NCBI GenBank assembly: GCA_965602905.1
Contig: CBFCZY010000016.1
Span: 2,280 to 66,279, forward strand
DNA: 64,000 bases
Direction of reading: 5' to 3'
Origin: an uncultured bacterium
GTDB lineage: Bacteria; SAR324; XYD2-FULL-50-16
The notes beneath the pieces were generated by a model that had not been told where the DNA came from, did no database searches, and saw nothing but the letters and a program-made list of their open reading frames with translations. Shown piece by piece: positions 9,253-55,038 of the stretch (the first letter of the stretch is position 1; every line of letters starts with the position of its first letter). The position numbers and the translations under genes were made by a program.

Positions 9253-11856
9253 TTAGTTGGTCTTTAGTCGCTCTAAAACCTCTTTGATTCTTATGACTAA
9301 AGCCAACCGCAAGATGGGCTTAGGGAGATAATCATCCATGCCGCTTTCAAGGCATGCGGCTTTATCATCATTAAAGGCATTGGCCGTTACGGCAATAATA
9401 GGGATGTGCCCGCCTTCACTGGCTTCCTTTTCTCGGATTAAACGAGTGGCCTTGAGGCCGTCCATCTTGGGCATCCTGATGTCCATTAAGATCAAATCAA
9501 AAGAATCTGTTTCGAGCTTCTCTAGTACCTCCACTCCATTTTGAGCGAGCACCATGGTCGCCTTTAATTTATTCAGGATACTTTTCATTAAAACCTGATT
9601 CACCCTTGTGTCTTCAGCGACTAAAATTTTCAGCCCTGCTAAATCAGGTGAATCATTGGTGTCAGGTTGTATTTTGGGGGGACTTTGCTCCGCCACGATC
9701 AAGGGGATCTCAACAAAAAACTTACTCCCTTGGCCTAACTGGCTGGTTACCCAGATTTCCCCATGCATCAAGTTAACCAGTTTTTTGCAAATTGCTAGGC
9801 CTAAACCTGTGCCTCCAAAGTGTTTTGTCGTGGTTGCATCAGCTTGTGTAAAACGGTCGAAAATATTTTCAATGGCCTGCTCGCTTATACCAATACCGCT
9901 GTCTGCAATGCAAAACTGTAAGGTGGCCTCTCCAGCTGTGGTGCTACCTTTTTTCACAGAAAGCTCTACAGAGCCCTCTTTGGTAAACTTTAAAGAATTG
10001 CTTAGAAGGTTGATCAGAATTTGGCGAATTCGCAGACTGTCACCGATATAATTATTTGGCAGGTCCTCTTCTAAAGTAACGAAAAAGTTTACATTTCTAA
10101 GCTTGAATTGCGTAAAAAATAGGTCTTTTTTTGAATCTAAGAGCTTATTTAGTTCAAAGGGTTCTTTATAGATCTCTAACTGGCCAGCTTCAATTTTTGA
10201 GTAGTCTAAAATATCATTGATCAACTGCAACAGGGAATTGGAAGAATCCACAACGATTTCTAAAAAGCGCCGTTGTTCTTGGTTGAGTTCTGAGTTTAAA
10301 ACTAGATCAGTCATCCCGATGATAGCATTCATTGGCGTGCGGATCTCATGGCTCATATTAGCGAGGAAGGCACTTTTCGCATGGTCGGCAGACCTCGCCT
10401 TTTCTTCGGCCTCTTTGATGTGGGTCACATCCGTTATGGTGCCTGAAAACTGCGCAACTTCGCCCTTTTGGCCACGAGCCATAACCTTTCCACGAGCCAT
10501 TACATAAAGGTAGTGACCTTCATGATGTAGCAGGCGGTGGGTGCATTGAAAATAGTCTGTATCGCCTCTTAGATGCTCTTGAAACTGCTTGTCGAACCAA
10601 GGTTTATCGTCTTCATGTATGCGGTCAGTCCAGCAGGCAATGGTATGCTGGTGTTTGATGTGGCTCAGGCCTAAAAGGTGTAACCAGCGTTCGTCTAAGA
10701 TTAATTTTTTGTCCATTGGGTGCCAGTCCCATAGGCCATGAGCTGTTCCCTCTAAAATTAAGTTGATCCGTTCCCCCGCTTCACGGAGGATTTCAGACTT
10801 TTCCCCTCGTTGCTGTTCCATTTTAAAGTAGAAAAAGAAACCAAAGGCCGTGACCAAAGAAAAGCCTAACCATAAGAAGATTAAACTTTGCGCAAATTCC
10901 CCTAGGTAATCATCCTTGCGAAAGCTGATCACGTAGGCGACTTGTTCCCCTAAGACATTCATCACAGGCAGAAAGACCAAAAGGTAATTTTGGCCCTTGA
11001 CCTTTACCGTTTCTGCAAAGGCCTCACCGCCATTTAGCCGTACCTGAATACTAGGGGCGATTGCCGCTTTAACCTCTTCAAAGCCTGTTGCAGCAAAGGA
11101 GCTTGTTTCGCCAAGAAAGGCAGAGTGAGCAATATTTTCCTCTAGGTACAGTGGGTTTAAGGGCGAGGTTTTATAGTTTGATTTTTCATCAAAAAACACT
11201 TTTTTTGAGATGACCTTTTTTTGTAAAATAAAGTCAAATCGAGTGTCGCTAGTTACGTTGAGTTTGGCTTTTAGCGCGTCAAAAGACATGCTGGTTTCCA
11301 CAGAACCAATATGGTTTTTTTTGTAAAAAAGAGGGAAAACGTAGCGAAAACCGTTATAGATTCTTCCCTCTTCAAAACCTGAAACATAACGCTGTTGGGT
11401 ATTGGCGAGATTTACACTGGCACGAACAGACATTAAATTATCCCCAAATTTACCAGGCCTGTGAAAGCGTAAAAAACTATCCCCGTTGGGCAAGTGGAAA
11501 TGGAGTTGGCGGATGCCAAATTTTTTAATTTCGGTGTATTCTAAGTGCAGCTCGTTCCAGAGTTTTGTCCTTATCGCAGCCTTATGCGCAAGGTCGCCAT
11601 CCTTGGCTGTAGAGATAATTTCTAGCACCTTGGGGTTATCTACAACATGGTGATAAAACACCTTAGCCAAAACTTCACTGGAATAAAAAGCCTGCTGGTA
11701 AACACGGTTGAGCTGTTTTATTTCTTGAGTGAAGTAGATACTGCGGCTTTCTTTCCAGTAGTGAAGCAGTGGGCCTATGAACAGGAATTGTAAAATAAAG
11801 AAGGCTCCAAGAAGCCCCAGAAAAGTGTTCTTTGTTTGTATTTTTTTCATGATCAT
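9253..11856 (-). CDS. Hybrid sensor histidine kinase/response regulator (TM-Cache-type periplasmic domain-TM-PAS-HisKA-HATPase-REC)
   Basis: 867 aa. The Cache_3/Cache_2-like signature is [38 protein letters not shown] is marked by [18 protein letters not shown] and the H-box by [18 protein letters not shown], with HATPase G-boxes present. The C-terminal receiver shows [42 protein letters not shown]. Confidence 0.9.
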
Positions 11857-12193
11857 TTTTACTTTTAGTCCTTAGTTAATGATTACAAAAAAAGATCCAT
11901 TTGTCGATAAAATACAGATGCCTTTTGTAGGTATCCACTTATAAAAAGTCATTCAAATAGGGTATTTACCCTGATTTAACCCTTTCAAAGTCTGAGGCTT
12001 TCCCTTTGCCTTTGGCCTCTTTCAAGGCGAAAATAAGAGGCTTTAAATCTTTAAGCCAAACAAATCTGCTAAGGTTGGATGCTGCATTTCTGAATCAAAA
12101 ATTAATCCTCTTCTAACATAATCTAAATACAAAGCCAGTATCCTGGGGTTAACTTTTAAGCCCATAGGTACTGTCAGGCGCCTGTAGGAAGTA

Positions 12194-13972
12194 ATGTTAA
12201 AAAAGGTACAGCTGATGATACAAGATTTAGAGCAAAAAGAGAAAATGGATTGGGTCCAGAGTTTTGAGCAGCTTCAAATTCTATTCAAGCCCATTGTAAA
12301 TACCCAAAGTGGTAAAATACATGCTGTAGAGTCCTCCATTGGTTCCATCTCAAAATTGGGGTTTTACAGCAGAAAAGAGCTTTTTTGCTTTGCTGAAGAA
12401 GAAGGCTATACAAAGGACCTTCACCATTGCCTGTTAAAAAAATCACTTAAAGGATTTAGCTCTCTCCACCCTGCCGGTGAACTAAAGCTATTTTACCCCT
12501 TAACCCTAGGTTTGGACGAAAGTAGCTGGCATGATTCTGTACAAGAGTTGGCCCAAGAATATAAAATTAAACTGCCAAATATTTGCATGGTCGCTGAAAG
12601 TGAAGAGTTAATCATAGACCCCTCCACGGTAAACCAATCGGGAATTTGTATCAGTGGTGAAGTGGGTTATTTTTCTAATTTTTTTGAAAAAGAACCTAAT
12701 TTTCAATATTTCCGCCTTACTCGAAACCTGTATATTCCAGCGCAAAAAAACCGAAAAAAACGTTTTTTTATGCAAAAACTTGTAGAAAATTGTGGCTACT
12801 TTGGGGTCTCGCTACTGGCTGTAGATGTGGAAACTAAGGGCGAAGCATTATTTTTAAAAGACTTAGGTTGTAACTACATTCAAGGTGAGGTTGTATCTCG
12901 GCCCTTAAGGCCAAGTGTAGAGAGGCCCTTAGAATTTGCCTTTATAGAGCAGGTTTATAACCAGTCTAAGCGGGAAAAGGAACAGAGATGCATACATTCT
13001 TTGGCAGAAGAGATTAAAGCTGTAGAGGCCATATCTGTAACTACCCCCGTTAGTGAGGTTTTGTCGAAGTTCCAGGCCCAAGAAGAGGTTAGCTTCTTTC
13101 CTGTTGTAAACGAAATTGGTGAGCCTCTAGGTTTGATTCGTGACCGAGAACTGAAAGCTTACGTCTATTCTCCCTTTGGTCACCAACTTTTAAAAAATAG
13201 AGGGATTGGCCTCGGGCTTGATGGCTTTATTACTCAGTGCCCTAAGGTAAACACCAACGAGAAGATTGAAGACATTTTAAATATCTTCGCTAATCAAAAT
13301 TGTGAAGATGGCATTTTAATTGTAGAAAATCAAAAGTACCGAGGTATGCTCAACGCCAATTCTTTGGTCCGCCTGATCAATGAAAAAAATCTCTTCCAAG
13401 CAAGGGATCAAAATCCCTTAAGTAAGCTTCCTGGGAATCAAGTGATCAACAACTATATTCAAAAGGTGCTTCAAGATAATTCTGAAACCAGTTATTTAAT
13501 CTATTTCGATTTTGATAATTTTAAACCCTTCAATGACTACTATGGCTTTCGCAAAGGCGACCGAGCTATTTTGCTTTTTGCGGAACTGATGCAGAAATTT
13601 ATTGCTTCAAGCGGTGGCTTTATAGGGCACATCGGTGGCGACGATTTTTTTGCAGGTTTGACAGGGGATGATTACGAGTCTGTAGCTAAAAAGATCGGCA
13701 AGCTTTTGCTTAAATTTGGCGAGGATGTAAAAAGTTTTTACGATCTTAATGACCGTAAACGAGGGTTCATAAAGGCTCTAGACCGAAATGGGCGGGAGCA
13801 AGATTTTCCTCTTTTGGGCGTTTCAGCGAGCCTGTTGCAGGTCTCACCTGCCAGCGGTTGTAGGTTTGAAGAGGTTGCCGATATCTTTGCCCCTATGAAA
13901 AAGTCTGCGAAAAGTAGCCCCGACCACTATGTTGCCGCTACTTTTTGGAGTCAGCCACAAACAAATCGATAG
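12194..13972 (+). CDS. Signalling protein with degenerate EAL, tandem CBS and GGDEF-like (GGDDF) domains
   Basis: 592 aa. The N-terminal EAL-like fold starts FKPIVNTQSGKIHAVES (EAL triplet replaced by VES) and ends LAVDVETKGEALFLKDLGCNYIQGEVVSRP, with the DDFG position reading SGEVG. The CBS pair covers aa ~270-400. The C-terminal part reads YLIYFDFDNFKPFNDYYGFRKGD..GHIGGDDFFAG. Confidence 0.75.
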   Translation: MLKKVQLMIQDLEQKEKMDWVQSFEQLQILFKPIVNTQSGKIHAVESSIGSISKLGFYSRKELFCFAEEEGYTKDLHHCLLKKSLKGFSSLHPAGELKLFYPLTLGLDESSWHDSVQELAQEYKIKLPNICMVAESEELIIDPSTVNQSGICISGEVGYFSNFFEKEPNFQYFRLTRNLYIPAQKNRKKRFFMQKLVENCGYFGVSLLAVDVETKGEALFLKDLGCNYIQGEVVSRPLRPSVERPLEFAFIEQVYNQSKREKEQRCIHSLAEEIKAVEAISVTTPVSEVLSKFQAQEEVSFFPVVNEIGEPLGLIRDRELKAYVYSPFGHQLLKNRGIGLGLDGFITQCPKVNTNEKIEDILNIFANQNCEDGILIVENQKYRGMLNANSLVRLINEKNLFQARDQNPLSKLPGNQVINNYIQKVLQDNSETSYLIYFDFDNFKPFNDYYGFRKGDRAILLFAELMQKFIASSGGFIGHIGGDDFFAGLTGDDYESVAKKIGKLLLKFGEDVKSFYDLNDRKRGFIKALDRNGREQDFPLLGVSASLLQVSPASGCRFEEVADIFAPMKKSAKSSPDHYVAATFWSQPQTNR

Positions 13973-14043
13973 GCAAGACCTCAAGTTTGACTTCAATTTG
14001 AATCATGGTACAATGGATTTGTACATATTATATAGGCGGACTC

Positions 14044-16995
14044 ATGAAACCAATTGATTCAAACCTAGAGAAAAAAGTCCAAAGCTTAGCTCAGGCTTTG
14101 TGGACGGCTACACAAGATAAGGCCCCTGGATTATTTGACCAAGACTTTTGGCAGGGCAAACTATTAGATCTGGTGATGAAAGACCCTGCCTTTAAAGTGG
14201 ATTTTTTTAGATTCATCGATGTGCTGCCCATCTTAAACAACAGCAAAGATTTTACCGAACACGTTGAAGAATACCTGCTGAAACCGGGCCACCAATTGCC
14301 TAAGTTCATCGAGCTCGCCTTGCAGGCTACAGCCTTCAAATTGACTGCACCCTTGGCTTCCAAAGCCGTTAAGGGCAGGGTGAGTGATCTCGCCATGGGC
14401 TTTATTTTAACAGATAAAATGGGTGAGGTTGCAGAGAAACTTTTAGAGCTCAACCATGGAGGTTTGGGGTATACTGTTGATCTATTAGGGGAAGCAACCT
14501 TGAGCCGAGAAGAGGCGCAAAGTTACCAAGAAAAATATCTCCAACTGATTGACCAAATCGCCGAAGCCAGTAAAAGACAACCTGCAAAAGGGGCCTTAAC
14601 GGAGTGGGTACAGGGGTTAGGAAACATGTCCATTAAGGTAACAGCCTTTGCCCCATACTTAGAATCTGCTGATTTAGAGGGGAATCTCGACCGATTGGAA
14701 GAGATGTTATTGCCTGTCTTTCGCAAAGCCAAAAAAGCGGGAATATTTATCAATCTCGATTTGGAACAGTGGCAGTATCACCAACTGACCTATCAACTCT
14801 TTGCAAGGCTGGCTCTGCACCCAGATCTGCAAGATTACCCTAAAATGGGTGTCGTGGTGCAAGCCTATTTGCTTTCCACAAAAGAAGACCTGCACTTTTT
14901 ATTGGGCCTTGCCCAAAAAAGAGGCACTTCCTTTAGTATCAGGTTGGTGAAGGGCGCCTACTGGGACTATGAAGTGATCAACGCCCAAAGCCACGGCCTG
15001 CCTGTTCCTGTATACTTGCAAAAGGCCCAGACGGACGTGAGTTATGAGCAGGCCAGTCAGTTTATATTGGACCATTACAAAGTGCTTCGCCCCGCCTTTG
15101 CCAGTCACAATTTGCGTAGTTTGGCCTTTGCCTTGTCTCTCGCTGAAGAGTTAGAAATACCAAAAAAAAATATAGAGATCCAAATGCTTTATGGCATGGC
15201 GGAACCGACCAGATTGGCTCTGCTAGAGGAAGGCTACCCCATTCGACTCTATACCCCTGTGGGGGATTTGCTTCCAGGGATGTCTTATTTGGTGCGGCGC
15301 CTCTTGGAAAATACCAGTAACGAAGGTTTTCTGCGCCAAAGTTACCAAGAGCATGCAAGCTTGGAAAGCCTGATGCAAAATCCCAAAAATCTAATCCAGC
15401 CCACCAGAGAGGCAACCACAGCGGATGGATTTACCAATTGCCCTGAGCTGGATTTTTCTCTGCCCCAAGTGGCAGGTAAATACCAAAAGGCGCTAAATAA
15501 AGTGCTACAAAGCCTGCCCACCCAAGTACCGGGGGTGATTTCAGGGGAACGATTCTTTCCTAAGAACTTACACTTTACCAAAAGCCCCAACGACCTAAAT
15601 TTAACTGTGGCAGAGCTCAGCTTCTTAGAAGTCAATGAGGCCGAACTTGCCATTGGTGAGGCTACCGAGGCTTGGCCCAGTTGGGCGGAAACCGCTGTGG
15701 CAAAAAGGGCCGATTACCTTGACCGTTTGGCCGATATTTTAGAAGAAAAACGCTATTTCTTTTGCGCTTTAGAGACGGTGGAGGTAGGGAAACCTTGGCC
15801 CGAGGCCGATGGGGATGTAGGCGAGGCCATCGATTTCTGCCGCTACTATGCCCATGTAGCCAGAATCACCTTAGAGCCTGAATCCTTAGGCCAACTGGAT
15901 GGAGAAGAAAACATCCTCTACCATGAGGGCCGAGGGCCAGCAGCCATCATAGCCCCATGGAATTTCCCCTTGGCCATTCTTTGCGGCATGACCACAGCGG
16001 CACTAGTGGCTGGCAACCCTGTCTTGATCAAGCCCAGTTCTAACGCAGCCCTAACAGGGTATCATTTCTTTTTGGCCCTAGAGGAAGCAGGTTTTCCTTC
16101 TGAGGTAATCCACTTTTTACCAGGGGCTGGGAGCAGTATTGGTGGCTATTTGGTTGATCATGTGGCTGTTCCTTTGGTGGCCTTTACGGGAAGTAAGGCT
16201 GTGGGTTTGGGGATTTTAGAGCGAGCAGGTCAGGTGAGGTCAGGGCAGAAACTCATTAAAAAGGTTGTCTGTGAAATGGGTGGAAAGAATGCCATCATTG
16301 TTGATTCTGATGCAGATATGGATCTTGCTGTAGCAGGGGTTATCCAGTCGGCCTTTGGTTTTGCAGGGCAAAAGTGTTCGGCCGCCTCTCGTATCATTTT
16401 GGTTGGCGAGGCCAAAGAATTATTTTTACCAAGGCTTTTGGAATCCTTAGCAAGCATGCCTGTAGCCCCTGCCACTTCGCCCAGTTGCCGCTTAGGGCCT
16501 GTTATCGACCAAGTGGCCTTTGACCGTTTGAAGGCTGTGGAGAAAAATCTAACGGCAGGGGCAGAGTTGCTATTTCGAGGTGAGGTTCCAGAAGGTGGAT
16601 TTTTTATCGCCCCACAAATTTACCAAGTGACCGACCGACAGCACCCCCTGTTACAGCAGGAATTATTTGGCCCTATTACTACAGTGATCCATTGCCCCGA
16701 TTTTGATTCGGCTTTAGATGTTGCCTTAGATAGTGAATATTTTCTAACCGGGGCAATCTATTCGCGTAACCCCGCCCATTTGGAATTGGGGAAGAAGCGC
16801 TTTAAGGTCGGTAATCTATACCTAAACCAAGGTTCCACAGGGGCAAAGGTTCAACGCCAGCCCTTTGGTGGCTTTGGCATGAGCGGGACAGGCACCAAAG
16901 CTGGGGGACGAGATTACTTAAAAAACTTTACCCACCCTAGGGTTGTAACAGAAAATTTACTAAGAAGAGGCTTTTCACCGACCCTACTCCTATAA
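14044..16995 (+). CDS. putA: Bifunctional proline dehydrogenase / L-glutamate-gamma-semialdehyde (P5C) dehydrogenase
   Basis: The N-terminal half is a proline-dehydrogenase TIM barrel (VVQAYL..RLVKGAYWDYE..MLYGM..YLVRRLLENTSN). The C-terminal half is an ALDH (PWNFPLAI, EMGGKNAIIVD, FGFAGQKCSA). Start is uncertain: ATG 14044 (MKPIDSNLEKK) is preferred over the track's ATG 14005, whose first 13 residues look non-native. Confidence 0.85.
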   Translation: MKPIDSNLEKKVQSLAQALWTATQDKAPGLFDQDFWQGKLLDLVMKDPAFKVDFFRFIDVLPILNNSKDFTEHVEEYLLKPGHQLPKFIELALQATAFKLTAPLASKAVKGRVSDLAMGFILTDKMGEVAEKLLELNHGGLGYTVDLLGEATLSREEAQSYQEKYLQLIDQIAEASKRQPAKGALTEWVQGLGNMSIKVTAFAPYLESADLEGNLDRLEEMLLPVFRKAKKAGIFINLDLEQWQYHQLTYQLFARLALHPDLQDYPKMGVVVQAYLLSTKEDLHFLLGLAQKRGTSFSIRLVKGAYWDYEVINAQSHGLPVPVYLQKAQTDVSYEQASQFILDHYKVLRPAFASHNLRSLAFALSLAEELEIPKKNIEIQMLYGMAEPTRLALLEEGYPIRLYTPVGDLLPGMSYLVRRLLENTSNEGFLRQSYQEHASLESLMQNPKNLIQPTREATTADGFTNCPELDFSLPQVAGKYQKALNKVLQSLPTQVPGVISGERFFPKNLHFTKSPNDLNLTVAELSFLEVNEAELAIGEATEAWPSWAETAVAKRADYLDRLADILEEKRYFFCALETVEVGKPWPEADGDVGEAIDFCRYYAHVARITLEPESLGQLDGEENILYHEGRGPAAIIAPWNFPLAILCGMTTAALVAGNPVLIKPSSNAALTGYHFFLALEEAGFPSEVIHFLPGAGSSIGGYLVDHVAVPLVAFTGSKAVGLGILERAGQVRSGQKLIKKVVCEMGGKNAIIVDSDADMDLAVAGVIQSAFGFAGQKCSAASRIILVGEAKELFLPRLLESLASMPVAPATSPSCRLGPVIDQVAFDRLKAVEKNLTAGAELLFRGEVPEGGFFIAPQIYQVTDRQHPLLQQELFGPITTVIHCPDFDSALDVALDSEYFLTGAIYSRNPAHLELGKKRFKVGNLYLNQGSTGAKVQRQPFGGFGMSGTGTKAGGRDYLKNFTHPRVVTENLLRRGFSPTLLL

Positions 16996-17002
16996 GGACG
17001 CC

Positions 17003-18217
17003 ATGGAAGACCAAGGAGTTAGTTTTTGCATTGAGGCCCATCTTTTAGACAGCCTAATTTTGTCTGAGCTTTTAGACCAGTTGGCCAGTTTAAAAGTTGA
17101 CTATCAGATCGAAGACTGGAAGATCGGCTCAACCAGAAAAAATGCCAGCAAGATCTGCCTGCGCCTTTGGCCCACAGGGCAGAAAGTTGAATCTTTGAAC
17201 CTACTTATGGCGAACTTTGACGCTGTGAGAGGCGAGCCTGAGCTGAAAGAAGTGGAGGTTGCCTTGTCGCCAAAGGATGGCGTTTACCCAGAAGGTTTTA
17301 TTACCACCAGCAACCAGCCAACAGAAGTTTTTTACAACAACCAATGGCTTACGGTGGCAAGTCTCTGTATGGATGCCGCCATTAAGGTGACAAAGAATAA
17401 GGCCAAGGCGGTAAAGTTTTTTGAAGTTAAAAAGGGAGACCTCATAGTTGTGAGTGATTTTGGTGTGCGAGTTCATCTGCCTAGTTCGTTGGGCAGTAGT
17501 GAAGGCTTTAGCTTTATGGGGTCTAATGTAAGCAGTGAAAAACCTTGGCAGCAGGTGATTACCTCCATTGCCAAAGAAATTAAGTCCCTCAAGGGTAGAA
17601 AAAAAGTATTGCTCGTCGGTGGCCCCGCTATTATCCACACAGGTGCAGCGATTGATTTAACGAATCTGATTGAAGGGGGTTGGGTCAATTTGATTTTTGC
17701 AGGCAACGCTCTGGCAACCCACGACATTGAAGCGGCGCTTTCGGGCACCAGTTTGGGGGTGGATCTAACGACAGGCAAAAATCAACATCTCGGCAACAGG
17801 CACCATTTGCAAGCGATCAATAAAATCCGTCAATGCGGGGGGATTGCTGAGGCTGTGAACCAAGGGGTTTTAAATTCTGGGATCATGCATGCCTGTGTGA
17901 AAGAGGGCGTAGATTTTGTTTTGGCTGGCTCCATCAGGGACGATGGGCCTTTGCCCGAAGTGATTACAGATGCAATTGAGGCCCAAAAGACCATGAAGGC
18001 GAGACTGCCTGAAGTGGGATTGGTTTTAATGGTGGCGACTCTGCTGCACTCTGTCGCTGTGGGGAATTTGCTCCCAGCAGGCATCCCCACTTATATGGTG
18101 GATATTCACTTGGGCGCAGCCACAAAATTGGGCGACCGAGGAACGGGGCAAGCGGAATCTTTGGTGATGGATGCCAAGTCCTTTTTGCATGAATTACATT
18201 TGGCCCTAAACCAATGA
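17003..18217 (+). CDS. LOR/SDH-conserved-region + TIGR00300-type protein; homologue of the C-terminal (ornithine cyclodeaminase-type) domain of cyanobacterial AgrE/ArgZ
   Basis: 404 aa. The N-terminus IEAHLLDSLILSELLDQL matches the GH(I/L)IDSxxLSxxLD signature of PF04455. The C-terminal Rossmann part reads VGGPAIIHTGAA..GWVNLIFAGNALATHDIEAALSGTSLG. It lies 8 nt after the putA stop. Confidence 0.7.
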   Translation: MEDQGVSFCIEAHLLDSLILSELLDQLASLKVDYQIEDWKIGSTRKNASKICLRLWPTGQKVESLNLLMANFDAVRGEPELKEVEVALSPKDGVYPEGFITTSNQPTEVFYNNQWLTVASLCMDAAIKVTKNKAKAVKFFEVKKGDLIVVSDFGVRVHLPSSLGSSEGFSFMGSNVSSEKPWQQVITSIAKEIKSLKGRKKVLLVGGPAIIHTGAAIDLTNLIEGGWVNLIFAGNALATHDIEAALSGTSLGVDLTTGKNQHLGNRHHLQAINKIRQCGGIAEAVNQGVLNSGIMHACVKEGVDFVLAGSIRDDGPLPEVITDAIEAQKTMKARLPEVGLVLMVATLLHSVAVGNLLPAGIPTYMVDIHLGAATKLGDRGTGQAESLVMDAKSFLHELHLALNQ

Positions 18218-19014
18218 AAGCCCTGCTTTGCAGCCCCGACTACTTTGGGGTGAGCTACGAGATCAACCCTTGGATGCATGTGCAAACCCAGCCTGATGGA
18301 GCACTGGCAATGACCCAGTGGCGGGCACTTTGCGAGGCCTTGCAAGGTTTGGGGGTGACTTTAGAATTGATTGCGCCTGTGAAAGGCCAACCAGATATGG
18401 TTTTTACTGCCAACGGGGGTTTGGTTAAGGGGTTAGGTGGAGCCGCCCAAGTAGTACTGCCAAACTTTCGGCACCCAGAAAGGCAAGGGGAAAGGTCAGC
18501 CTTTGCAGCATGGTTTGAAGCCTGCGGCTATCAAACCCAGAGTTTGCCTGCAAACTACCCCTTTGAGGGGGAGGGAGATGCGCTCTTTTGTGGGCAACGA
18601 TTATTTACAGGCTACCCTGTTCGCACTCATCTCGGCGCCCATAGGCAACTGGGGGAAATTTTTGACTGTGAAGTCATTTCTTTAATGTTGGTAAACCCTG
18701 CTTTTTACCACTTGGATACTTGCTTTTTTCCCATTAATCCTGAACTTGCTGTCTATTACCCTAAAGCCTTTGATGACCATGGTATCAAACTAATAAAAAC
18801 CTACTTTAAAGAAACCATTGCTCTGGCGGATACAGATGCAGCGGCCTTTTGTTGTAACGGCGTAGCCGTGGGGCAAAATTTGATTCTGCCTCAAGGTTCA
18901 GAGGAGTTGAAAGGGCAATTGGAAGCCTTAGGATTTAAGGTCACCTATCTAAATTTTAGTGAATTTATCAAGGCTGGCGGTGCGGCAAAATGCCTTACCC
19001 TCTGGCTAGAGTAA
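18214..19014 (+). CDS. Guanidino-group-modifying enzyme (amidinotransferase/arginine dihydrolase family), homologue of the N-terminal domain of ArgZ/AgrE
   Basis: 266 aa. Shows SPDYFGVSYEINPWM, DMVFTANGGLV, FEGEGDALF and AFYHLDTCFFP, with a C-terminal nucleophile motif KAGGAAKCLT. There is an ATGA start/stop overlap with the upstream gene. Confidence 0.7.
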   Translation: MKALLCSPDYFGVSYEINPWMHVQTQPDGALAMTQWRALCEALQGLGVTLELIAPVKGQPDMVFTANGGLVKGLGGAAQVVLPNFRHPERQGERSAFAAWFEACGYQTQSLPANYPFEGEGDALFCGQRLFTGYPVRTHLGAHRQLGEIFDCEVISLMLVNPAFYHLDTCFFPINPELAVYYPKAFDDHGIKLIKTYFKETIALADTDAAAFCCNGVAVGQNLILPQGSEELKGQLEALGFKVTYLNFSEFIKAGGAAKCLTLWLE

Positions 19015-19034
19015 GACAAATTAGGAGCCTTAAG

Positions 19035-20042
19035 CTACTTAAAAGAAGCCAAAAGTTGGCTGTTTTTGGGGTGCTTGCCTAGGAGTTCGATCAACTTTTC
19101 AATGGCACCTCGATCATTTTCTTTTCCCAAGGTGCGGTAAAGAGTATTGAGTTGTTCATATTCTTCAGGCTCAAATAAAAGCTCGGCTCTGCGAGTAGCA
19201 CTTTTCAACACATCAATTGCAGGGAAAAGACCATTTTGCGCCAGTTTTTTAGAGAGTACCAATTCCATGTTTCCTGTGCCCTTGAATTCTTCAAAGATCA
19301 CTGTGTCCATGGCGCTTCCTGTATCCACTAAAATGGTAGCGATAATGGTGATGGAACCTGAATCTTCAACGTTGCGAGCAGCACCAAAAATTCGACGAGG
19401 GATTTCCATAGCCCCTGCGCCCATACCACCTGACATGGTTTTTCCACCACTGCGGTGATTGGTGTTGTGCACCCTTGCCAAGCGAGTCAAGGAATCGAGC
19501 AGGATCATTACATCATGCCCTTCTGCGGCCTCTTTGAAGGCCTTAGATATTACTTGGTCAGCCACTTTAATATGTTCTTCTTGGCCTTGGTCCATTGAAG
19601 AAGAGTAGACTTCTGCGGTCACGCCACGTTTAAAATCCGTTACCTCTTCTGGTCTCTCATCAACCAGTAGGCAGAAGACTTTCATGTCGGGGTGGCCTTC
19701 TGTGACAGCCTTACAAATATTCTTTAAAAATGTCGTTTTTCCAGAGCCTGGTGAGGACACAACCAGTGCACGTTGACCCATACCGATGGGGCAAATTAGA
19801 TCCAGCGCACGGACAGATAAATCATCACTACCCTTTTCTAAGATAATACGAGGGTAGGGGTTGATAGCCGTCCCGCCTAAAAACCGTTTTTCTTCTATGG
19901 ATTGACTTGGTTTTTTTGGGGCGTTGCCATGTTGGGAGCGTTGCTGCGGTCTTCGTTGCTGGCTTTTGCCTTGGGGCTTTGTGCCTTCTGGTCTTTTGCG
20001 TCTATGTTGGATGGGGTCTCGTGGAAAATTCGTTTTGGACAG
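19035..20042 (-). CDS. Rho-family transcription-termination ATPase homologue lacking the N-terminal RNA-binding domain; start codon unresolved (possible pseudogene)
   Basis: From ATG 19781 the sequence reads MGQRALVVSSPGSGKTTFL (Walker A) ..ARNVEDSGSITIIATILVDTGSAMDTVIFEEFKGTGNMELVLSKKLAQNGLFPAIDVLKSATRRAELL, closely matching the E. coli Rho C-terminal domain. Homology (FLGGTAINPYPRIILEKGSDDLSVRALDLICPIG) and the open frame continue upstream to the TAA at 20043-20045, but that stretch has no in-frame ATG, GTG or TTG. No Rho_N or OB-fold domain is encoded. Confidence 0.7.
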   Translation of the reverse strand: MSKTNFPRDPIQHRRKRPEGTKPQGKSQQRRPQQRSQHGNAPKKPSQSIEEKRFLGGTAINPYPRIILEKGSDDLSVRALDLICPIGMGQRALVVSSPGSGKTTFLKNICKAVTEGHPDMKVFCLLVDERPEEVTDFKRGVTAEVYSSSMDQGQEEHIKVADQVISKAFKEAAEGHDVMILLDSLTRLARVHNTNHRSGGKTMSGGMGAGAMEIPRRIFGAARNVEDSGSITIIATILVDTGSAMDTVIFEEFKGTGNMELVLSKKLAQNGLFPAIDVLKSATRRAELLFEPEEYEQLNTLYRTLGKENDRGAIEKLIELLGKHPKNSQLLASFK

Positions 20043-30516: not shown

Positions 30517-31953
30517 TTATATTTTGTTTGGCTGCAAACAGTCTGCTTGACCCGTTACATCTGGGCAGAAGCTAGCTCTGTTTTGATCATAAAGATAGGG
30601 CCTTTTGGGGTCTCCTGTTTCTCGAAAGCAGGTCTTAAAGGGCGAACTATGCCAATTAAATTCGTGCGCTTTTGGCGGAATTCTTTCTAGTCGGCAGATG
30701 ACAGAGCGATGAAGTTTAAGCTTTCCTTTGTTGTACTTTGTATCTGAATAAGCCCAAAGATTTCTTTTTAGATTTTTATAAATAATGCCCACAGCTTGTT
30801 TTTTCGGATCATTAGAAGGAGCATAGGGATTTGCTTTTATACAATTTTCTTTTGGGAATATCTCATGGGAGTTTTCTGCCACTTGATCAAGCATCCATAG
30901 TAAAGAATTATTACCGATACCATTTTCAGAAATATGTGGTTTATATCCCATTATTTTATTGTAATTGTACTTAAAAAATCCTTGATCTGTGCTTTCAATG
31001 GTCCCACCGACATCAGCATGTGCCCCTGAAAACCAAACTTCATTAACATGCTCATCAATTGAAAACAAAACCTCATTACCATGCTCATCAATTTTTTGAG
31101 TGGGGCAATCGTCGGTTAAATGTTGCCTTGTCAAGAGGATGGGAGTGAAGATTTGGGCTCGGTTATCATCAAGAGAAACTGCATGGGCAGCTTTTTCCAC
31201 GTTGCAAAGTTGGTCATTGTACCTGCTATTTGGGTTTTCAATATTTTCATCATAATCAGGAATGCCAAGAGCTTCAACTGTATCCCAAAGCCCTAAAAAA
31301 CTAACTGTTACAGGTGCTAAATAATGATTTTTATCGGGGTTTTTGGGGTCATAGGGCTTTGTGTTAAATTCCTTGGCCACTGAAAGCCTTCGTTCTTCTA
31401 AGGTAGCCTCTTTTTGCTTAAAAGCCTTGTAGACTTTAGAGGCCAGATAGTCGGAGTTTGCCTCTGTTTTATTAATTTCCTCTTGGTAAGTTGGGATGCC
31501 TGCCGTATGCAACAAAGAGGCAAGAATTCTAGCTTGGTATGCCCCTCTGCTGAAACCAAAAATATAAACTTTATTGCCTTTGTTTTTACTAAAATTTTGT
31601 ATCAAAAAAGAATAGGCTTTTCGTACCCTATAGGCTGTACCCCAACCTAGAGCATTACCTAAAATTTTTCCCCTTGCCCCGACTCCTTCAATGTAAAAAG
31701 AGCTGGTATTGGCACCTTGGTTTTTTTTGGCGAGCTTATAAAGTTTATAGATATTGGTGTTGTGGGCTGGGTAGTTAGATGTGCCATCAAAAAAAATGAT
31801 AAAATTTCTAGGATTGCTTTTGTTAACAAGTGTTTCTGAAAGCTCAGGTGAAGGGGGGCAGAGTGAGTCTACCCCAACAAAAAACAAATAAACCACGAAT
31901 AGGAGTGGAGCATATTTTAGCACTTTAAATTTTAGTAATTTTTGAACATTCAT
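30517..31953 (-). CDS. Secreted DUF2235 alpha/beta hydrolase (T6SS Tle1-type phospholipase family fold)
   Basis: 478 aa with an N-terminal signal/anchor (LLFVVYLFFVGVDSLC). DUF2235 hallmarks are FIIFFDGTSN, IEGVGA, GFSRGAYQAR (GxSxG) and FLGLWDTV. The gene and its flanks look AT-richer than neighbouring genes by eye. Confidence 0.75.
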   Translation of the reverse strand: MNVQKLLKFKVLKYAPLLFVVYLFFVGVDSLCPPSPELSETLVNKSNPRNFIIFFDGTSNYPAHNTNIYKLYKLAKKNQGANTSSFYIEGVGARGKILGNALGWGTAYRVRKAYSFLIQNFSKNKGNKVYIFGFSRGAYQARILASLLHTAGIPTYQEEINKTEANSDYLASKVYKAFKQKEATLEERRLSVAKEFNTKPYDPKNPDKNHYLAPVTVSFLGLWDTVEALGIPDYDENIENPNSRYNDQLCNVEKAAHAVSLDDNRAQIFTPILLTRQHLTDDCPTQKIDEHGNEVLFSIDEHVNEVWFSGAHADVGGTIESTDQGFFKYNYNKIMGYKPHISENGIGNNSLLWMLDQVAENSHEIFPKENCIKANPYAPSNDPKKQAVGIIYKNLKRNLWAYSDTKYNKGKLKLHRSVICRLERIPPKAHEFNWHSSPFKTCFRETGDPKRPYLYDQNRASFCPDVTGQADCLQPNKI

Positions 31954-32288: not shown

Positions 32289-34361
32289 TTGTCCCCTTTG
32301 AAAAGTTCCCCAATATTAATTCTCCTAATCTTAGTTGTATTTGGGTTTTCTAGCTGTTCCAGCAATCACTTCAACCCTCGGGCAGCCGATGATTTTACAA
32401 AATTAGAAAGATCAGGGGAGTTGCGTATCCTGCTTTGGGCCGAGCCAAATGCACAAAATTCCACCGACCCCCTTTGGCGAGAGCGCCAAAAGGCCCGAGA
32501 CCTAGCGCTTTACTTAGGGCTAAAGCCAGTTTTTATCCACGGTAACAACTACCAAGATATGTTAAAAAAACTTGGACGGGGCCAAGTGGATTTGGTTGCA
32601 GGCAGAGACCTGAGTGGTCAAAAAAACAAGGCCTATAAATCAGTTCCCTATCTGATGCTCGACGAAGTGTTAGTGGTGAAAAAGGCTAGAAGAAACAGAC
32701 CCTACAAAAGCCTGAAGTCCTTTGGGAATCGGGTTCTCTGTTACCGTGCCAATAGCCCCCAGGCGCAATTGGCGAGCAGGTTACAATTAAAATGGCCTAA
32801 GCTGAAAACAAAAAAAATCCTCCATAGTTACTCCACCAACCAAATACTAAAAGAAGTGGAATTGGGTAGCTGTGGCGGTGCACTGGTTGACTCGCTCTTT
32901 TGGCGCAAGCAAAAAAAATCTCACAGAAAATTATTTTCCCCCTACAGGGCCGCAAAAAACCAACCTTTAGCCTTTGCCTTGCGCCCCAATTCGAAGATCT
33001 TACACTTACAGGTGAACAACTTTCTTTTTTCACAAGCCTTGGCTCGTAGAGGGAAACGCCACTCAAAAGTGGACCTCGCAGGCATCAAAAGACAGAAAAA
33101 CTTAAGGATGATCACCAGAAATAACAACATGACCTTTTTTATCCACCGAGGTGGTCAGTTGGGTTTTGAATATGAATTGATCCAGAGATTTGCCAAATCG
33201 CAGGGGTTGAAGCTGGAAGTGGTCAACCCTTCTTACCACAGTGATTTGATTCCTTGGCTGAAAGAAGGCAAAGGGGACTTGATTGCAGCGGCTATGACCA
33301 TTACCCCTAAAAGGGCCAAAGAAGTCCGCTTTACAAGGCCCTATTTAAAAGTGCAGCAGTGGATAATAGCGAAAAAAACCAAGGGGCAAAAGACAGGCAT
33401 TGAGGCTCTTACAGGGGCAACCATTTCTATCCGTAAATCCAGTGCCTTTTTAGCCCCCTTGAAAAAGCTGCAAGGGAAAGTGAAGGGTCTTAAAATCGAG
33501 TTTTTGCCTGAAGACATGGAAACAGAGGATATTTTAGAAAAGGTAGAAGCCCAAGAAATTGCCTTTGCTGTTGCCGATTCGAATCTAGCCAAAGCCCAGA
33601 TCCGTATGGGCCGAAAGCTGACCAAAGCTTACTCCCTTGGCTCTTCTGAACTTGCTTGGGCCGTAAGAAAAAATAACCCACAGCTTTTAAAAGCACTGAA
33701 TCGATTTATTGCCAAGGAAAGCCGCTCAGGTTATTTTAAAATCCTCCGTGAAAAGTATTTTTACAATCGTAAGGTATTGGCGAAAAGTGAAGATGCCTTC
33801 CGCTCCGATCTTTTTGGTCAAATTTCCCCCTATGATGCACAAGTGAAACAGTTTGCCGACCCCTACAATCTTGATTGGAGGCTGATTGTTTCTCAGATGT
33901 ACCAAGAATCAAGATTTGACCCTAAAAAACGCAGTTCTGCTGGGGCACAGGGCTTGATGCAAGTCATGCCTAGAACAGCAAAAGAAATGGGGTTGAAAAA
34001 AGGACAAAGTCTACACCAACCAGAGGCAGGGCTTAGGGTTGGAGTGAAGTATATGGCCAGGCTCTTTCGGCATTTTGATGATGTAGAACAATTGAGAGAT
34101 CGCATTTACTTTACCTTAGCCTCCTACAACGCAGGTCAGGGTCATGTTAAGGACGCTAGAATATTGGCTAGAAAACTGGGGTATTCTGGGGAGATTTGGT
34201 TTGGTCAGGTGGAAAAATCCATTCGTCTTTTGGCTCAACCGAAATACTATAAAAAAGCTCGATATGGTTATTGTCGGGGCGCTGAGCCTGCTAACTATGT
34301 TACAGACATTCAAAGCCGTTACTCTGTATATGTAGAACACATCCCCTCAATTCATTTTTAG
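32289..34361 (+). CDS. MltF-like lytic murein transglycosylase lipoprotein with two tandem SBP_bac_3-like domains and a C-terminal SLT domain
   Basis: 690 aa with a TTG start and lipobox VFGFSSC. There are two periplasmic-binding-protein-like modules (aa ~40-270 and ~275-500). The SLT catalytic motif is QESRFDPKKRSSAGAQGLMQVMP..SYNAG. Confidence 0.8.
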   Translation: MSPLKSSPILILLILVVFGFSSCSSNHFNPRAADDFTKLERSGELRILLWAEPNAQNSTDPLWRERQKARDLALYLGLKPVFIHGNNYQDMLKKLGRGQVDLVAGRDLSGQKNKAYKSVPYLMLDEVLVVKKARRNRPYKSLKSFGNRVLCYRANSPQAQLASRLQLKWPKLKTKKILHSYSTNQILKEVELGSCGGALVDSLFWRKQKKSHRKLFSPYRAAKNQPLAFALRPNSKILHLQVNNFLFSQALARRGKRHSKVDLAGIKRQKNLRMITRNNNMTFFIHRGGQLGFEYELIQRFAKSQGLKLEVVNPSYHSDLIPWLKEGKGDLIAAAMTITPKRAKEVRFTRPYLKVQQWIIAKKTKGQKTGIEALTGATISIRKSSAFLAPLKKLQGKVKGLKIEFLPEDMETEDILEKVEAQEIAFAVADSNLAKAQIRMGRKLTKAYSLGSSELAWAVRKNNPQLLKALNRFIAKESRSGYFKILREKYFYNRKVLAKSEDAFRSDLFGQISPYDAQVKQFADPYNLDWRLIVSQMYQESRFDPKKRSSAGAQGLMQVMPRTAKEMGLKKGQSLHQPEAGLRVGVKYMARLFRHFDDVEQLRDRIYFTLASYNAGQGHVKDARILARKLGYSGEIWFGQVEKSIRLLAQPKYYKKARYGYCRGAEPANYVTDIQSRYSVYVEHIPSIHF

Positions 34362-34364
34362 TTT

Positions 34365-36164
34365 ATGCGATTTTTAATTTTTCTTCTTCTTTTTCCCAGC
34401 CTCCTTATGGCCGCCGTAGAGCCTAAAATCTTGGGGCCGGGGAAATACCTTTACCCCAACGGTGACCTTTACCTAGGTGAATTAGACAAGGGGAAGCGAG
34501 AAAATTACGGTATCATTAAATTTAAAAATGGCAACAAATACGAAGGCAGTTTTCGCCACGATAAAATCGCTGGAGAAGGTGTGATGACCTATGCCAATGG
34601 CGATTCCTACCAAGGGCAATTTAAAGATGGAAAAAAGCATGGCAAGGGCCTTTATAAACATACTGGCGGTGGGCTATACAAGGGTGCATTTAAAAAGGGA
34701 TTCCGCCATGGGCAGGGGCTTTTTACTTCCCCCAGCGGGGATAGTTACGAGGGGATTTTTATCCAAGGCAAAAAAAAGAATTTTGGCCTCTATCGTTTTA
34801 AGAATGGAGACCGATACGAGGGAACTCTAGTTAAGGGAAAAAAGTTTGGTAAGGGCACCCTTGACTACGCAGGTGGAGAACACTTTGAGGGCATTTTTAA
34901 CTTTGATCTGAAAGAGGGCAAGGGCCTAACTCGATTTGCCCAAGGTGGCGGATACCAAGGGGATTACAAAGACGACCAAATGCATGGGCAGGGAATCTTA
35001 AAAGAGGCCAATGGGCAGGTTTACCGAGGGCAATTTCACAGAAATAACAAACAGGGCCAAGGTCGCTTGGACTTTCCCAATGGGGACTTTTATATTGGTG
35101 GCTTTTTTCGTGGTCAGTATCATGGCCAAGGAAAGCTAAACCTTCACAGTGGTTCTTACCAACAGGGAAAATATAAAAAGGGAGTTTTACATGGGCAGGG
35201 CCACTATAAAATGGCCAGCGGTGAGGAGTACCGAGGTGGATTTCTCTTTGGCGAAAAATCAGGAAAGGGGAGTTTATCTTTAGCCAATGGCGACAGCTAC
35301 AAGGGAAGGTTTTTTAAGGACCTTTTTCATGGCAAAGGTGTTTATGTCTATACCAAGGGGGATAAGTATATTGGCTCCTACCTTAAGGGTGTAAAAACAG
35401 GCTGGGGGAAATATCTATTTGCTGGTGGAGACAGATACCAAGGTCAATTTAGTAAAAATCATTTTAGCGGCAGAGGGGTTTTAAATTATCATGCTGGTCA
35501 TGTCTACAAGGGGCAATTTAAAGAAAGCTTGGCCGAGGGTAAGGGTAGCTTTCGCTATGTTTCTGGTGACCATTACCAAGGTCAGTTTAGTCGGGGCCTC
35601 TCTCATGGGAAGGGTGTACTAAAATATAAACATGGAGACCGCTACAAAGGTGATTTTCATAGGGGGTTTTTTGGCGGCAAGGGGAAGTACTTTTTTATAA
35701 ATGGAAATAGCTACCAAGGTGAATTTTCACGGGGCCGCATGGAGGGCCAAGGGCTATTTAAATTTAAGAAGGGAGACAGCTACCAAGGGACCTTTAAAGA
35801 TGACCAATTTGCAGGAAGTGGGAAATATAAAATGGCCCGAGGCGCAGAATACCAAGGTGACTTTTCAAAAAACAACTTTCATGGGAAAGGCCTTTGGGAG
35901 AGTCGCAGGTCAGATAAATATAAAGGAAATTTCACCCAAGGCCTTCCCCAAGGAAAGGGACAGCTGAGCTACGCCAATGGCGACCAGTATGAAGGCGACT
36001 TTGATATGGGCAAGCGTGAGGGCACAGGTTACTACACTTGGAAAAAAGGTGGCAGGTATCATGGTACTTTTAAGGCCGATAAAAGGGATGGCAGGGGAAG
36101 ATACATCCTTAAAAAAAGGCTCGAAAAGGGTGAATGGCACAACGATATTTTAATTGGAGAATAG
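34365..36164 (+). CDS. Secreted MORN-repeat protein (24 contiguous repeats)
   Basis: 599 aa. Signal peptide MRFLIFLLLFPSLLMA, then 24 back-to-back 23-residue units of the form Yx(F/Y)xNGDxYxGxFxxGxxxGxGx with no spacers. It starts 3 nt after the MltF-like stop. Confidence 0.85.
   Translation: MRFLIFLLLFPSLLMAAVEPKILGPGKYLYPNGDLYLGELDKGKRENYGIIKFKNGNKYEGSFRHDKIAGEGVMTYANGDSYQGQFKDGKKHGKGLYKHTGGGLYKGAFKKGFRHGQGLFTSPSGDSYEGIFIQGKKKNFGLYRFKNGDRYEGTLVKGKKFGKGTLDYAGGEHFEGIFNFDLKEGKGLTRFAQGGGYQGDYKDDQMHGQGILKEANGQVYRGQFHRNNKQGQGRLDFPNGDFYIGGFFRGQYHGQGKLNLHSGSYQQGKYKKGVLHGQGHYKMASGEEYRGGFLFGEKSGKGSLSLANGDSYKGRFFKDLFHGKGVYVYTKGDKYIGSYLKGVKTGWGKYLFAGGDRYQGQFSKNHFSGRGVLNYHAGHVYKGQFKESLAEGKGSFRYVSGDHYQGQFSRGLSHGKGVLKYKHGDRYKGDFHRGFFGGKGKYFFINGNSYQGEFSRGRMEGQGLFKFKKGDSYQGTFKDDQFAGSGKYKMARGAEYQGDFSKNNFHGKGLWESRRSDKYKGNFTQGLPQGKGQLSYANGDQYEGDFDMGKREGTGYYTWKKGGRYHGTFKADKRDGRGRYILKKRLEKGEWHNDILIGE
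34443..36135 (+). repeat. 69-nt-period coding repeat array (MORN units)
   Basis: The 23-aa periodicity of the encoded protein was counted by eye (24 full units plus a partial 25th). The nucleotide copies are diverged. Confidence 0.7.
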
Positions 36165-41589: not shown

Positions 41590-42624
41590 TTAGCCCTCTC
41601 CTAGTGGGTATTTCCCCCATTTGTGGGCAGCGGCAACAATTTGATGAAGGACAGAGTCTGAAACTTGCCAAGGGATTTCCCCGTGATTATCGGCCAAGAT
41701 AAAACCACCGCCCTGGCCTGCCTTGGTGATGCAGGCTTTTACATTTGCCTCAGTGGTGGCTTGGTCCCAGTTGCGCATCTCCACACCGTTTAGGGTGCCC
41801 AAGATCGAAATCTTATCTTTGCAAGTTTCTTTTAGAACGACCAGATCATCTTCCATGCTCGCTCCTAAAACCGCAGCGCCTGACTGGGCAATATCACCTG
41901 CAACGGCCAAGCTTCGGCCCGAAGCCAAGTGAGTGGCTACAGGGCCATTTATGGCGGCAATCGTTTTTTGGGCGACAATATAGCCTGTCTCTAAAAATAG
42001 CTGTCGTGGTATGATTGTCGGTGAGGCGATAGGGTCAAAATAACAAATAGCCGTTGCCCCTGCTGCTAGTTGAGCGTTGGCCCATGCAGTACTAAAGGCT
42101 TGGTTTTTTTCCATTAAGCGCCAGAAGACGGGCCTGTCTTCTAGCATTAATTGCAGGTAGCCCTCAAAACCCATTTGCATGACTGGAATAGAAAAGGGTG
42201 AGATCGCAACGGCGATGATGGGCGCTTCATCCCCTTTTTCTTTGATGATGCGGATGGATTCTAAAACCTCCATTAGTGGCCGTGAGTCTTCTACTGAAGG
42301 TGGTTGAAACTTCTCAAGATCATCCAGGGTAAAGATCGGCCTGCCAGCATTGGGTGGGCCATCGGTGCGAAAAAGAACATCCCCACCCATAGCTTGCGTT
42401 TCAATGGGAGCATAGAAAAAGGGGTAGTAGCAATCATGCTGGAATTTTTCTTTCATCCGCAATTGCCCCTCTGCGACCTGTGAACCTTTAGAGAAGTAGT
42501 CCTCAATGGAAAGATCTAGCTCTTTGGCCCCATGCATGGTCAAAAATAAAAACACAGGAACACGATCAGGTTCTTGGTGGCCAAGGGTTGTTAGCACTCG
42601 CTGTAAGGAAGTCATTTCGCTCAT
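41590..42624 (-). CDS. Uroporphyrinogen-decarboxylase (URO-D) family protein, MtaA/CmuA-like corrinoid methyltransferase homologue
   Basis: 344 aa. LQRVLTTLGHQEPDRVPVF is the typical URO-D/MT2 N-terminus, and the protein has (beta/alpha)8-like length and pattern. At the position where I expect the MtaA H-x-C-G zinc motif the sequence reads THLASG. ATGA overlap with the corrinoid-protein gene. Confidence 0.7.
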   Translation of the reverse strand: MSEMTSLQRVLTTLGHQEPDRVPVFLFLTMHGAKELDLSIEDYFSKGSQVAEGQLRMKEKFQHDCYYPFFYAPIETQAMGGDVLFRTDGPPNAGRPIFTLDDLEKFQPPSVEDSRPLMEVLESIRIIKEKGDEAPIIAVAISPFSIPVMQMGFEGYLQLMLEDRPVFWRLMEKNQAFSTAWANAQLAAGATAICYFDPIASPTIIPRQLFLETGYIVAQKTIAAINGPVATHLASGRSLAVAGDIAQSGAAVLGASMEDDLVVLKETCKDKISILGTLNGVEMRNWDQATTEANVKACITKAGQGGGFILADNHGEIPWQVSDSVLHQIVAAAHKWGKYPLGEG

Positions 42625-53106: not shown

Positions 53107-53117
53107 TAGGTGAAAAA

Positions 53118-53795: not shown

Positions 53796-53802
53796 GGTTG
53801 TG

Positions 53803-53982: not shown

Positions 53983-53985
53983 CCC

Positions 53986-54888: not shown

Positions 54889-54901
54889 TCAAGGATACAT
54901 T

Positions 54902-55030: not shown

Positions 55031-55038
55031 GCTTTAAA

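Follow-up and report, generated by a model that had tools for sequence, protein, structure and literature searches.

In cyanobacteria, arginine can be degraded through a known catabolic route that involves AgrE and PutA (PMC8262935). In this 'ornithine-ammonia' route, an arginine dihydrolase module and an ornithine cyclodeaminase module are fused, the dihydrolase first, in one polypeptide of ~700 amino acids (aa), ArgZ (Sll1336) or AgrE (Alr4995), and PutA acts after both. The genes for the fusion protein and for PutA are found under distant locus tags, namely, sll1336 and sll1561 in Synechocystis and alr4995 and alr0540 in Nostoc (PMC2242806). Here we analyze a 64,000-nucleotide stretch of DNA from an uncultured SAR324-like bacterium (GenBank assembly GCA_965602905.1, contig CBFCZY010000016.1; hereafter, the window), in which three adjacent genes encode PutA, a 404-aa predicted ornithine cyclodeaminase and a 266-aa putative arginine dihydrolase. 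The locus resembles the ArgZ/AgrE-PutA system in the presence of both catalytic modules, in the active-site residues of the dihydrolase, in the subsequent involvement of PutA and in the predicted net chemistry. It differs in that the two modules are separate proteins, with the cyclodeaminase gene first, in that putA belongs to the operon instead of carrying a distant locus tag, and in that the host is a SAR324-like heterotroph rather than a cyanobacterium. That the gene order is the opposite of that in the fusion, and that putA lies elsewhere in the cyanobacterial genomes, had been pointed out in an earlier note on this DNA, and both points hold for the two cyanobacteria named above.

Several other described systems share parts of this organization. 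The TIGR00300 enzymes of the methanogens Methanococcus maripaludis and Methanocaldococcus jannaschii have the same stand-alone architecture as the 404-aa protein, and that of M. maripaludis is its closest relative of solved structure; the methanogen cyclodeaminase, however, makes proline for biosynthesis, whereas the context of the gene in the window is catabolic. In Mycobacterium tuberculosis, Rv2323c is part of an arginine-induced roc cluster (Rv2319c-rocE-rocD-Rv2323c) and is itself needed for growth on arginine (PMC4569260). Like the 266-aa protein, Rv2323c is a stand-alone protein annotated as dimethylarginine dimethylaminohydrolase (DDAH), with the kinship between the two judged solely from a similar score with the NCBIfam model of the M. 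tuberculosis type; in the place taken here by a TIGR00300 cyclodeaminase and PutA, however, Rv2323c has an ornithine aminotransferase and a permease as its partners. For Coxiella burnetii, a 2026 preprint (PMC13252051) has proposed, from sequence, a two-protein route from arginine via ornithine to proline that consists of the ArgZ-N homolog CBU_0279 and the ornithine cyclodeaminase CBU_1727. Here, the likeness is one of proposed function: the two Coxiella genes are unlinked and no linkage to putA is described in that work, whereas those in the window are linked to each other and to putA. Finally, the arginase pathway (rocF-rocD-rocA of Bacillus subtilis; PMC4569260) starts and ends at the same compounds, leading from arginine to glutamate via ornithine and 1-pyrroline-5-carboxylate (P5C), and is also encoded by clustered genes; however, it releases urea and employs a transaminase, whereas the route predicted for the window would release three nitrogens as ammonia and pass through free proline.

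Taken together, the homology and the context presented below make it probable that the locus in the window, a promoter followed by putA, the cyclodeaminase gene (hereafter ocd) and the dihydrolase gene (hereafter adh), is an operon of a SAR324-like bacterium that turns L-arginine into L-glutamate via ornithine and proline. All three genes lie on the forward strand. The putA open reading frame (ORF) is open from 14005 to 16995 (996 aa), and is followed by the stand-alone TIGR00300-type (LOR/SDH-like) gene ocd (17003-18217, 404 aa) and by the stand-alone ArgZ-N-type gene adh (18214-19014, 266 aa), which encodes a guanidino-modifying enzyme. Upstream of putA, a consensus scan detected a sigma-70-type promoter-like element on the same strand (13987-14014; TTGACT, a 16-nt spacer and an extended -10 TG-TACAAT), which matches 10 of the 12 consensus positions in addition to the TG, and is the top-scoring match within 11700-19400. 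Because the ATG at 14005 lies inside this element, and because the PutA starts in two related contigs, L087 and L001, match the ATG at 14044, putA most likely starts at the latter position (14044-16995, 983 aa). The N-terminal sequence at this start is conserved between the window and both relatives (MKPID/MKSKD), with ATAGG in front, and the PutA proteins of the relatives consist of 984 and 983 aa. The spacer between the TAA stop codon of putA (ending at 16995) and the ATG of ocd (17003) is 7 nt long (ggacgcc), and the stop codon of ocd and the start codon of adh share the ATGA at 18214-18217, a 4-nt overlap. Thus, the ORF coordinates and the ATGA overlap given in the earlier note stand, except for the putA start, which moves from 14005 to 14044, and except for the distance between putA and ocd, which had been put at 8 nt.

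The same layout is found in close relatives of the locus. One database entry (P0121) is 100% identical to the cyclodeaminase, and an 82%-identical protein comes from a metagenome-assembled genome (MAG) labelled SAR324 cluster bacterium (contig L087). This MAG is the nearest relative with a name and points to a non-cyanobacterial source of the DNA, as do a Rho-like gene and a cbb3 oxidase cluster in the window. In L087, putA, ocd and adh follow one another in the identical order and are met by the same convergent Rho-like gene that follows the operon in the window. Contig L001 contains the same trio, with the cyclodeaminase 73% and the dihydrolase 66% identical to those of the window. In both contigs, the gap between putA and ocd is 7 nt, and a 4-nt start/stop overlap joins ocd to adh (GTGA in L087, ATGA in L001); the promoter block (GTTTGACTTCAATT ... 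TG.TACA.T) is retained as well, and the DNA further upstream diverges. A metagenome scan for close relatives of this lineage yielded almost none, namely, one duplicate and one at 55%. The three-gene arrangement exceeds chance: its order and junctions recur in two relatives, and the ocd-adh pair recurs across phyla (see below). With all genes on one strand, a 7-nt gap and a 4-nt overlap at the junctions, one upstream promoter and a layout conserved in relatives, the locus has the attributes of a single transcription unit, and putA, ocd and adh are probably co-transcribed.

The domain content that had been assigned to the three proteins agrees with Pfam. The product of 14044-16995 combines PutA_N, Pro_dh and Aldedh domains in one chain and aligns end to end with bifunctional PutA proteins of solved structure (5ur2, 1.4e-268, residues 23-980; 4nm9, 2.5e-228), although its score with the NCBIfam model PRK11904 (624.8) is under the cut-off of 747. 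By these sequence criteria, it is a full-length bifunctional proline dehydrogenase / glutamate-gamma-semialdehyde (P5C) dehydrogenase.

The 404-aa protein contains, in this order, Saccharop_dh_N (PF04455), ArgZ-like_C_1st (PF21571) and ArgZ-like_C_2nd (PF21570), all scoring over the cut-off. Its entire sequence can be aligned with the C-terminal domains of AgrE (4e-78) and ArgZ (1e-75), at 36% identity, and even better with the solved M. maripaludis enzyme (3c2q, Q6LXX7; 3e-86, 47% identity), so that the relationship to the AgrE C-domain proposed in the earlier note is borne out. In an alignment of 13 sequences (A2) that includes the AgrE C-domain and the M. maripaludis enzyme, the 404-aa protein keeps all 66 of the 66 invariant columns. 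The matching NCBIfam family, TIGR00300, is named 'ornithine cyclodeaminase, nickel-pincer nucleotide-dependent', and a passage of the GapMind 2026 preprint that cites Burnat 2019 credits both Anabaena AgrE and the homolog in M. maripaludis with this activity; according to the same preprint, loss of this homolog lowers fitness unless proline is supplied. Dependence of the family on a nickel-pincer (adenine dinucleotide) cofactor is reported in a passage of PMC13524815 citing Desguin 2025. The 404-aa protein is thus predicted to convert ornithine into proline and NH3. The linkage of ocd to putA had been offered as genetic support for a role of the LOR/SDH-type domain in proline formation; given the family name and the activity credited in that passage of the GapMind preprint, such support is redundant.

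Residues 2-263 of the 266-aa protein align with the N-domain structures of ArgZ/AgrE (6lrf, 1.1e-64; 6jv0, 1.6e-64; with 6juy, a range of 1e-63 to 1e-64), at 44-45% identity. Its C-terminus reads ...EFIKAGGAAKCLTLWLE, with the motif GGAAKCLT, as previously noticed, at residues 255-262. The counterparts of its residues N67, E118, H166 and C260 in 6juy_A are positions 73, 120, 170 and 266, which, allowing for a two-residue tag, correspond to N71, E118, H168 and C264 of ArgZ; the four residues are invariant or nearly so among 24 homologs. We take C264, H168 and E118 of ArgZ to be the catalytic residues and N71 to be linked to the second hydrolytic step. The comparison with the ArgZ N-domain suggested in the earlier note therefore comes out as an end-to-end match with the active-site Asn, Glu, His and Cys positions kept. 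As to clustering with DDAH, which that note named among the outcomes that would speak against an arginine dihydrolase, the comparison with genuine DDAHs is clear: those of solved structure (Pseudomonas aeruginosa) match the 266-aa protein with E-values no better than 1e-6 to 1e-7, compared with 1e-64 for ArgZ/AgrE. These observations suggest that the 266-aa protein converts arginine into ornithine, 2 NH3 and CO2.

If these assignments are correct, the pathway would proceed in three steps, and the order of the genes in the operon is the reverse of the order of the steps. The 266-aa enzyme, with its Cys-His-Glu active site, would perform two hydrolyses of the guanidino group (arginine + 2 H2O -> ornithine + 2 NH3 + CO2). 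The 404-aa TIGR00300-type enzyme would then cyclize ornithine to proline, setting free the third NH3, and PutA would oxidize proline to P5C, with the electrons passing into the respiratory chain, and further to glutamate, with formation of NADH. The net result would be conversion of arginine into glutamate, 3 NH3 and CO2, with a gain of reducing power. Translational coupling through the ATGA overlap would favor a 1:1 ratio between the two proteins, which are fused in cyanobacteria; the two small proteins might form a physical complex, and the operon is presumably induced by arginine.

The points that weigh against this assignment concern, in the first place, the identity of the 266-aa enzyme, which might instead be a hydrolase of the DDAH or deiminase kind, with citrulline as its end product (from arginine or methylarginines) or with another guanidino substrate; in that case, arginine would not enter the route as proposed. 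The sole Pfam match of the protein is a weak one to DDAH_eukar, and its homologs are mostly annotated in public databases as 'N-dimethylarginine dimethylaminohydrolase'. With the NCBIfam arginine dihydrolase model NF052232, the protein scores 260.7 bits, under the cut-off of 450, and the score is nearly equal, 256.7 bits under a cut-off of 300, with NF045659, the model for the M. tuberculosis-type 'dimethylargininase'; the other DDAH models score far lower (NF045658, 39.8 with a cut-off of 450; NF045660, 51.2 with a cut-off of 340). Seven stand-alone homologs score like the 266-aa protein, and none of those tested reaches the NF052232 cut-off. Genuine ArgZ/AgrE N-domains, used as a control, score 527 bits with NF052232 and also 231-239 bits with NF045659. 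Because true ArgZ/AgrE proteins obtain such scores, NF045659 does not discriminate, and we dropped the NCBIfam scores as an arbiter between an arginine dihydrolase and an M. tuberculosis-type DDAH. By HMM (hidden Markov model) score, the stand-alone proteins of the type found in the window, the ArgZ/AgrE N-domains and the M. tuberculosis-type proteins make up one inseparable family. A quick neighbor-joining (NJ) tree, which carries no support values, places the cyanobacterial ArgZ/AgrE N-domains within the stand-alone family; the nearest stand-alone relative of the ArgZ N-domain there is a protein from a MAG of Gastranaerophilales, non-photosynthetic relatives of cyanobacteria (L064), whose gene has a stop codon directly after the dihydrolase domain and no cyclodeaminase gene within the 10 kb upstream. 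Apart from the much weaker match to solved DDAHs, a hydrolase ending at citrulline is difficult to reconcile with the conservation of the Asn linked to the second hydrolysis in ArgZ and with the translational coupling, in most relatives, to an ornithine-consuming enzyme, and the DDAH-annotated Rv2323c itself is required for growth of M. tuberculosis on arginine, where ornithine and proline are made without an arginase (PMC4569260). We therefore consider such a hydrolase unlikely, and the 'DDAH' label on the M. tuberculosis-type branch may itself be wrong.

An arginine dihydrolase being the preferred assignment, it still has to be considered that the main role of the cluster might not be arginine catabolism. 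The cluster could supply proline from ornithine, with PutA balancing the flux, or provide ammonia for pH or nitrogen homeostasis instead of yielding carbon and energy. Such roles would fit the biosynthetic function that is attributed, in a passage of the GapMind 2026 preprint, to the stand-alone M. maripaludis cyclodeaminase, and the role in pH homeostasis that has been proposed for the same two enzyme types in Coxiella (PMC13252051); furthermore, neither an arginine transporter nor a dedicated arginine-responsive regulator is encoded within or adjoining the operon, a further point against the catabolic assignment. However, the gene for PutA, which destroys proline, comes first in the transcription unit, which argues for a flux from proline to glutamate, and linkage to putA recurs only alongside linkage to the cyclodeaminase gene (see below), so that we regard a non-catabolic main role as quite improbable.

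The remaining points on the negative side concern the formal classification of the two small proteins and the integrity of the route. The 404-aa protein scores 405.5 bits with TIGR00300, narrowly under the curated cut-off of 410.8. NF052231, the model of the bifunctional ArgZ/AgrE protein, describes neither gene product, the locus having two genes with the cyclodeaminase first and scores of 260.8 and 322.2 bits compared to a cut-off of 1025; thus, neither small protein formally belongs to a curated equivalog family. In L001, and also in L002, L003 and L089, adh is shortened to 243 aa (10001-10732 in L001): from about residue 230 on, the C-terminus of the L001 protein, including the catalytic Cys of GGAAKC, is replaced, and a fragment of a histidine kinase (HATPase_c) follows. 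The shortened version is present in three independent assemblies, with putA and ocd intact, and the first step of the pathway appears to be dispensable or decaying in this lineage. That the window, too, encodes an incomplete or inactive route, with the genes decaying or with the nickel-pincer cofactor, on which the family depends according to its NCBIfam name and the passage of PMC13524815, perhaps not made (no LarB-, LarC- or LarE-like gene was found among the ORFs of at least 150 aa in the window, although 64 kb of a genome says little on this point), is very improbable, given that the three ORFs are intact with all the family-invariant residues present, that the promoter and the junctions are conserved, and that cofactor genes need no linkage, with no further family accompanying the pair across lineages.

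We surveyed the distribution of the pair outside this lineage. The dihydrolase family comprises 608 clusters (50% identity) at E <= 1e-30 and 2012 at E <= 1e-10; its members are mostly stand-alone proteins of 255-300 aa, with few ArgZ-type fusions of ~700 aa. A genome survey yielded 80 species-representative loci from Planctomycetota, Verrucomicrobiota, Nitrospirota, Methylomirabilales, Omnitrophota and others, in which the best dihydrolase is only 48% identical to the 266-aa protein, and 76 genome loci were assessable, together with 61 loci on metagenome contigs (137 combined). The dihydrolase gene is immediately preceded by a co-directional cyclodeaminase gene in 51 of the 76 genome loci, typically with a gap of a few tens of nucleotides, and in 30 of the 61 metagenome loci (81/137 combined). 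The order found in the fusion, that is, dihydrolase followed by cyclodeaminase, was not seen in split form in any of 159 loci. The fetched flanks encode PutA in 5 of the genome and 10 of the metagenome loci; in the combined set, it is found near 14 of the 81 cyclodeaminase-linked loci vs none of the 56 unlinked ones (Fisher p = 8e-4). The putA gene is upstream and co-directional, as in the window, in L068 and L074, and divergent in many other loci; in a few, it lies on the opposite strand downstream of the pair. The PutA-linked loci are scattered across several deep branches of the NJ tree.

Clustering of the ORFs from 85 loci revealed no further family, such as a transporter, a regulator or a lar gene product, that accompanies the pair across lineages. 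The recurrent neighbors in these loci are limited to Verrucomicrobiota and, judged without a family search, are mostly housekeeping proteins involved in replication, repair and biosynthesis, with no apparent relation to arginine metabolism; nor was a common neighbor found for 25 dihydrolase genes that lack an adjacent cyclodeaminase gene. The split pair is widespread across phyla and is less special than the earlier note implied. The proposal in that note of a compact, non-cyanobacterial version of the pathway is supported by the homology, the genomic context and the SAR324-labelled relative.

Both enzymes, the pathway and a two-protein, non-cyanobacterial version of it have already been described or proposed, so the locus opens no fresh question; the specific arrangement of a cyclodeaminase gene followed by a dihydrolase gene, the repeated recruitment of putA by this pair and a single three-gene operon were not found described in the literature that we searched. 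If the predicted pathway is real, the locus would represent a compact, transferable three-gene module for the complete deamination of arginine to glutamate, and the ArgZ/AgrE-PutA route would extend to uncultured groups that are abundant, among them SAR324, planctomycetes and soil verrucomicrobia. It would also suggest re-annotation of thousands of bacterial genes for 'dimethylarginine dimethylaminohydrolase' and 'TIGR00300 family protein' as pairs of arginine dihydrolase and ornithine cyclodeaminase. A broader generalization, to which we would give slightly less than even credence, is that the pair with the recurrent putA constitutes a major, experimentally unstudied route from arginine to glutamate in Planctomycetota, Verrucomicrobiota, Nitrospirota, SAR324 and others; that the two enzymes form a channelling complex resembling ArgZ/AgrE; that the cyanobacterial fusion is derived, with an order never seen in split form; and that many bacterial 'DDAHs' are arginine dihydrolases.

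The genes on both sides of the operon differ in the extent to which they are retained in relatives. Upstream, a gene for an EAL-CBS-GGDEF signalling protein, in which the EAL domain, unusually, comes first (12194-13972, forward strand), ends 15 nt before the -35 element of the putA promoter, and read-through from this gene into the operon is possible. This gene is not kept beside the operon in the relatives, where a divergent adenylate/guanylate cyclase gene is found instead. Downstream, a Rho-like ATPase gene (19035-20042, reverse strand) converges on the operon. Its product comprises only the C-terminal ATPase part (positions 115-359 of the NCBIfam model 'Rho, short form'), without the RNA-binding N-domain. 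The frame is open for 336 codons, the first 88 of which include no ATG, GTG or TTG, and the L087 homolog, also of 336 aa, is called from an Ile codon at the matching position. The gene may have a non-canonical start, or its product may be a short Rho paralog of an unusual kind. Within the 3' end of the Rho-like gene, 33 nt past the last stop codon of the operon, the consensus scan alone points, tentatively, to a terminator-like palindrome, AGCCAAAAGTTGGCT followed by GTTTTTGG (19047-19061, readable on either strand), with a weak stem of only 6 bp; the regional count of such sites is not above that in shuffled sequences. An Rfam scan of the whole window detected zero RNA elements. The GC content is 48% in the operon, compared to 43.7% in the window, with the operon and the Rho-like gene at 46.5-48.4% and the flanking signalling genes at 40-41%; horizontal transfer of the operon was considered on these grounds and dropped, the difference being small and within the range of the housekeeping genes in the window.

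Further away, a complete-looking cluster for a cbb3-type oxidase (CcoN, CcoO, CcoP, FixG, FixH-like and a FixI-type P-type ATPase; 51664-59293, forward strand) indicates, to judge from its predicted gene content, micro-aerobic respiration and a probable sink for the electrons from PutA. A gene for a Tle1-like phospholipase effector of type VI secretion (30517-31953, reverse strand) has a GC content of 38% (33% at third codon positions) compared to 43.7% for the window, and no other type VI secretion genes were seen in the window. At 32289-36164 on the forward strand, a gene for an MltF-like fusion of SBP_bac_3 and SLT domains is succeeded, 4 nt further, by a gene for a 599-aa protein that consists almost wholly of MORN repeats. 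Finally, at 41590-43262 on the reverse strand, a gene for a B12-binding corrinoid protein (213 aa) lies directly upstream of, and overlaps, a gene of the URO-D family (344 aa); the two look like a corrinoid-dependent methyltransferase pair, as far as domain content tells, and are adjoined by genes for a Crp-like regulator and a hybrid histidine kinase.

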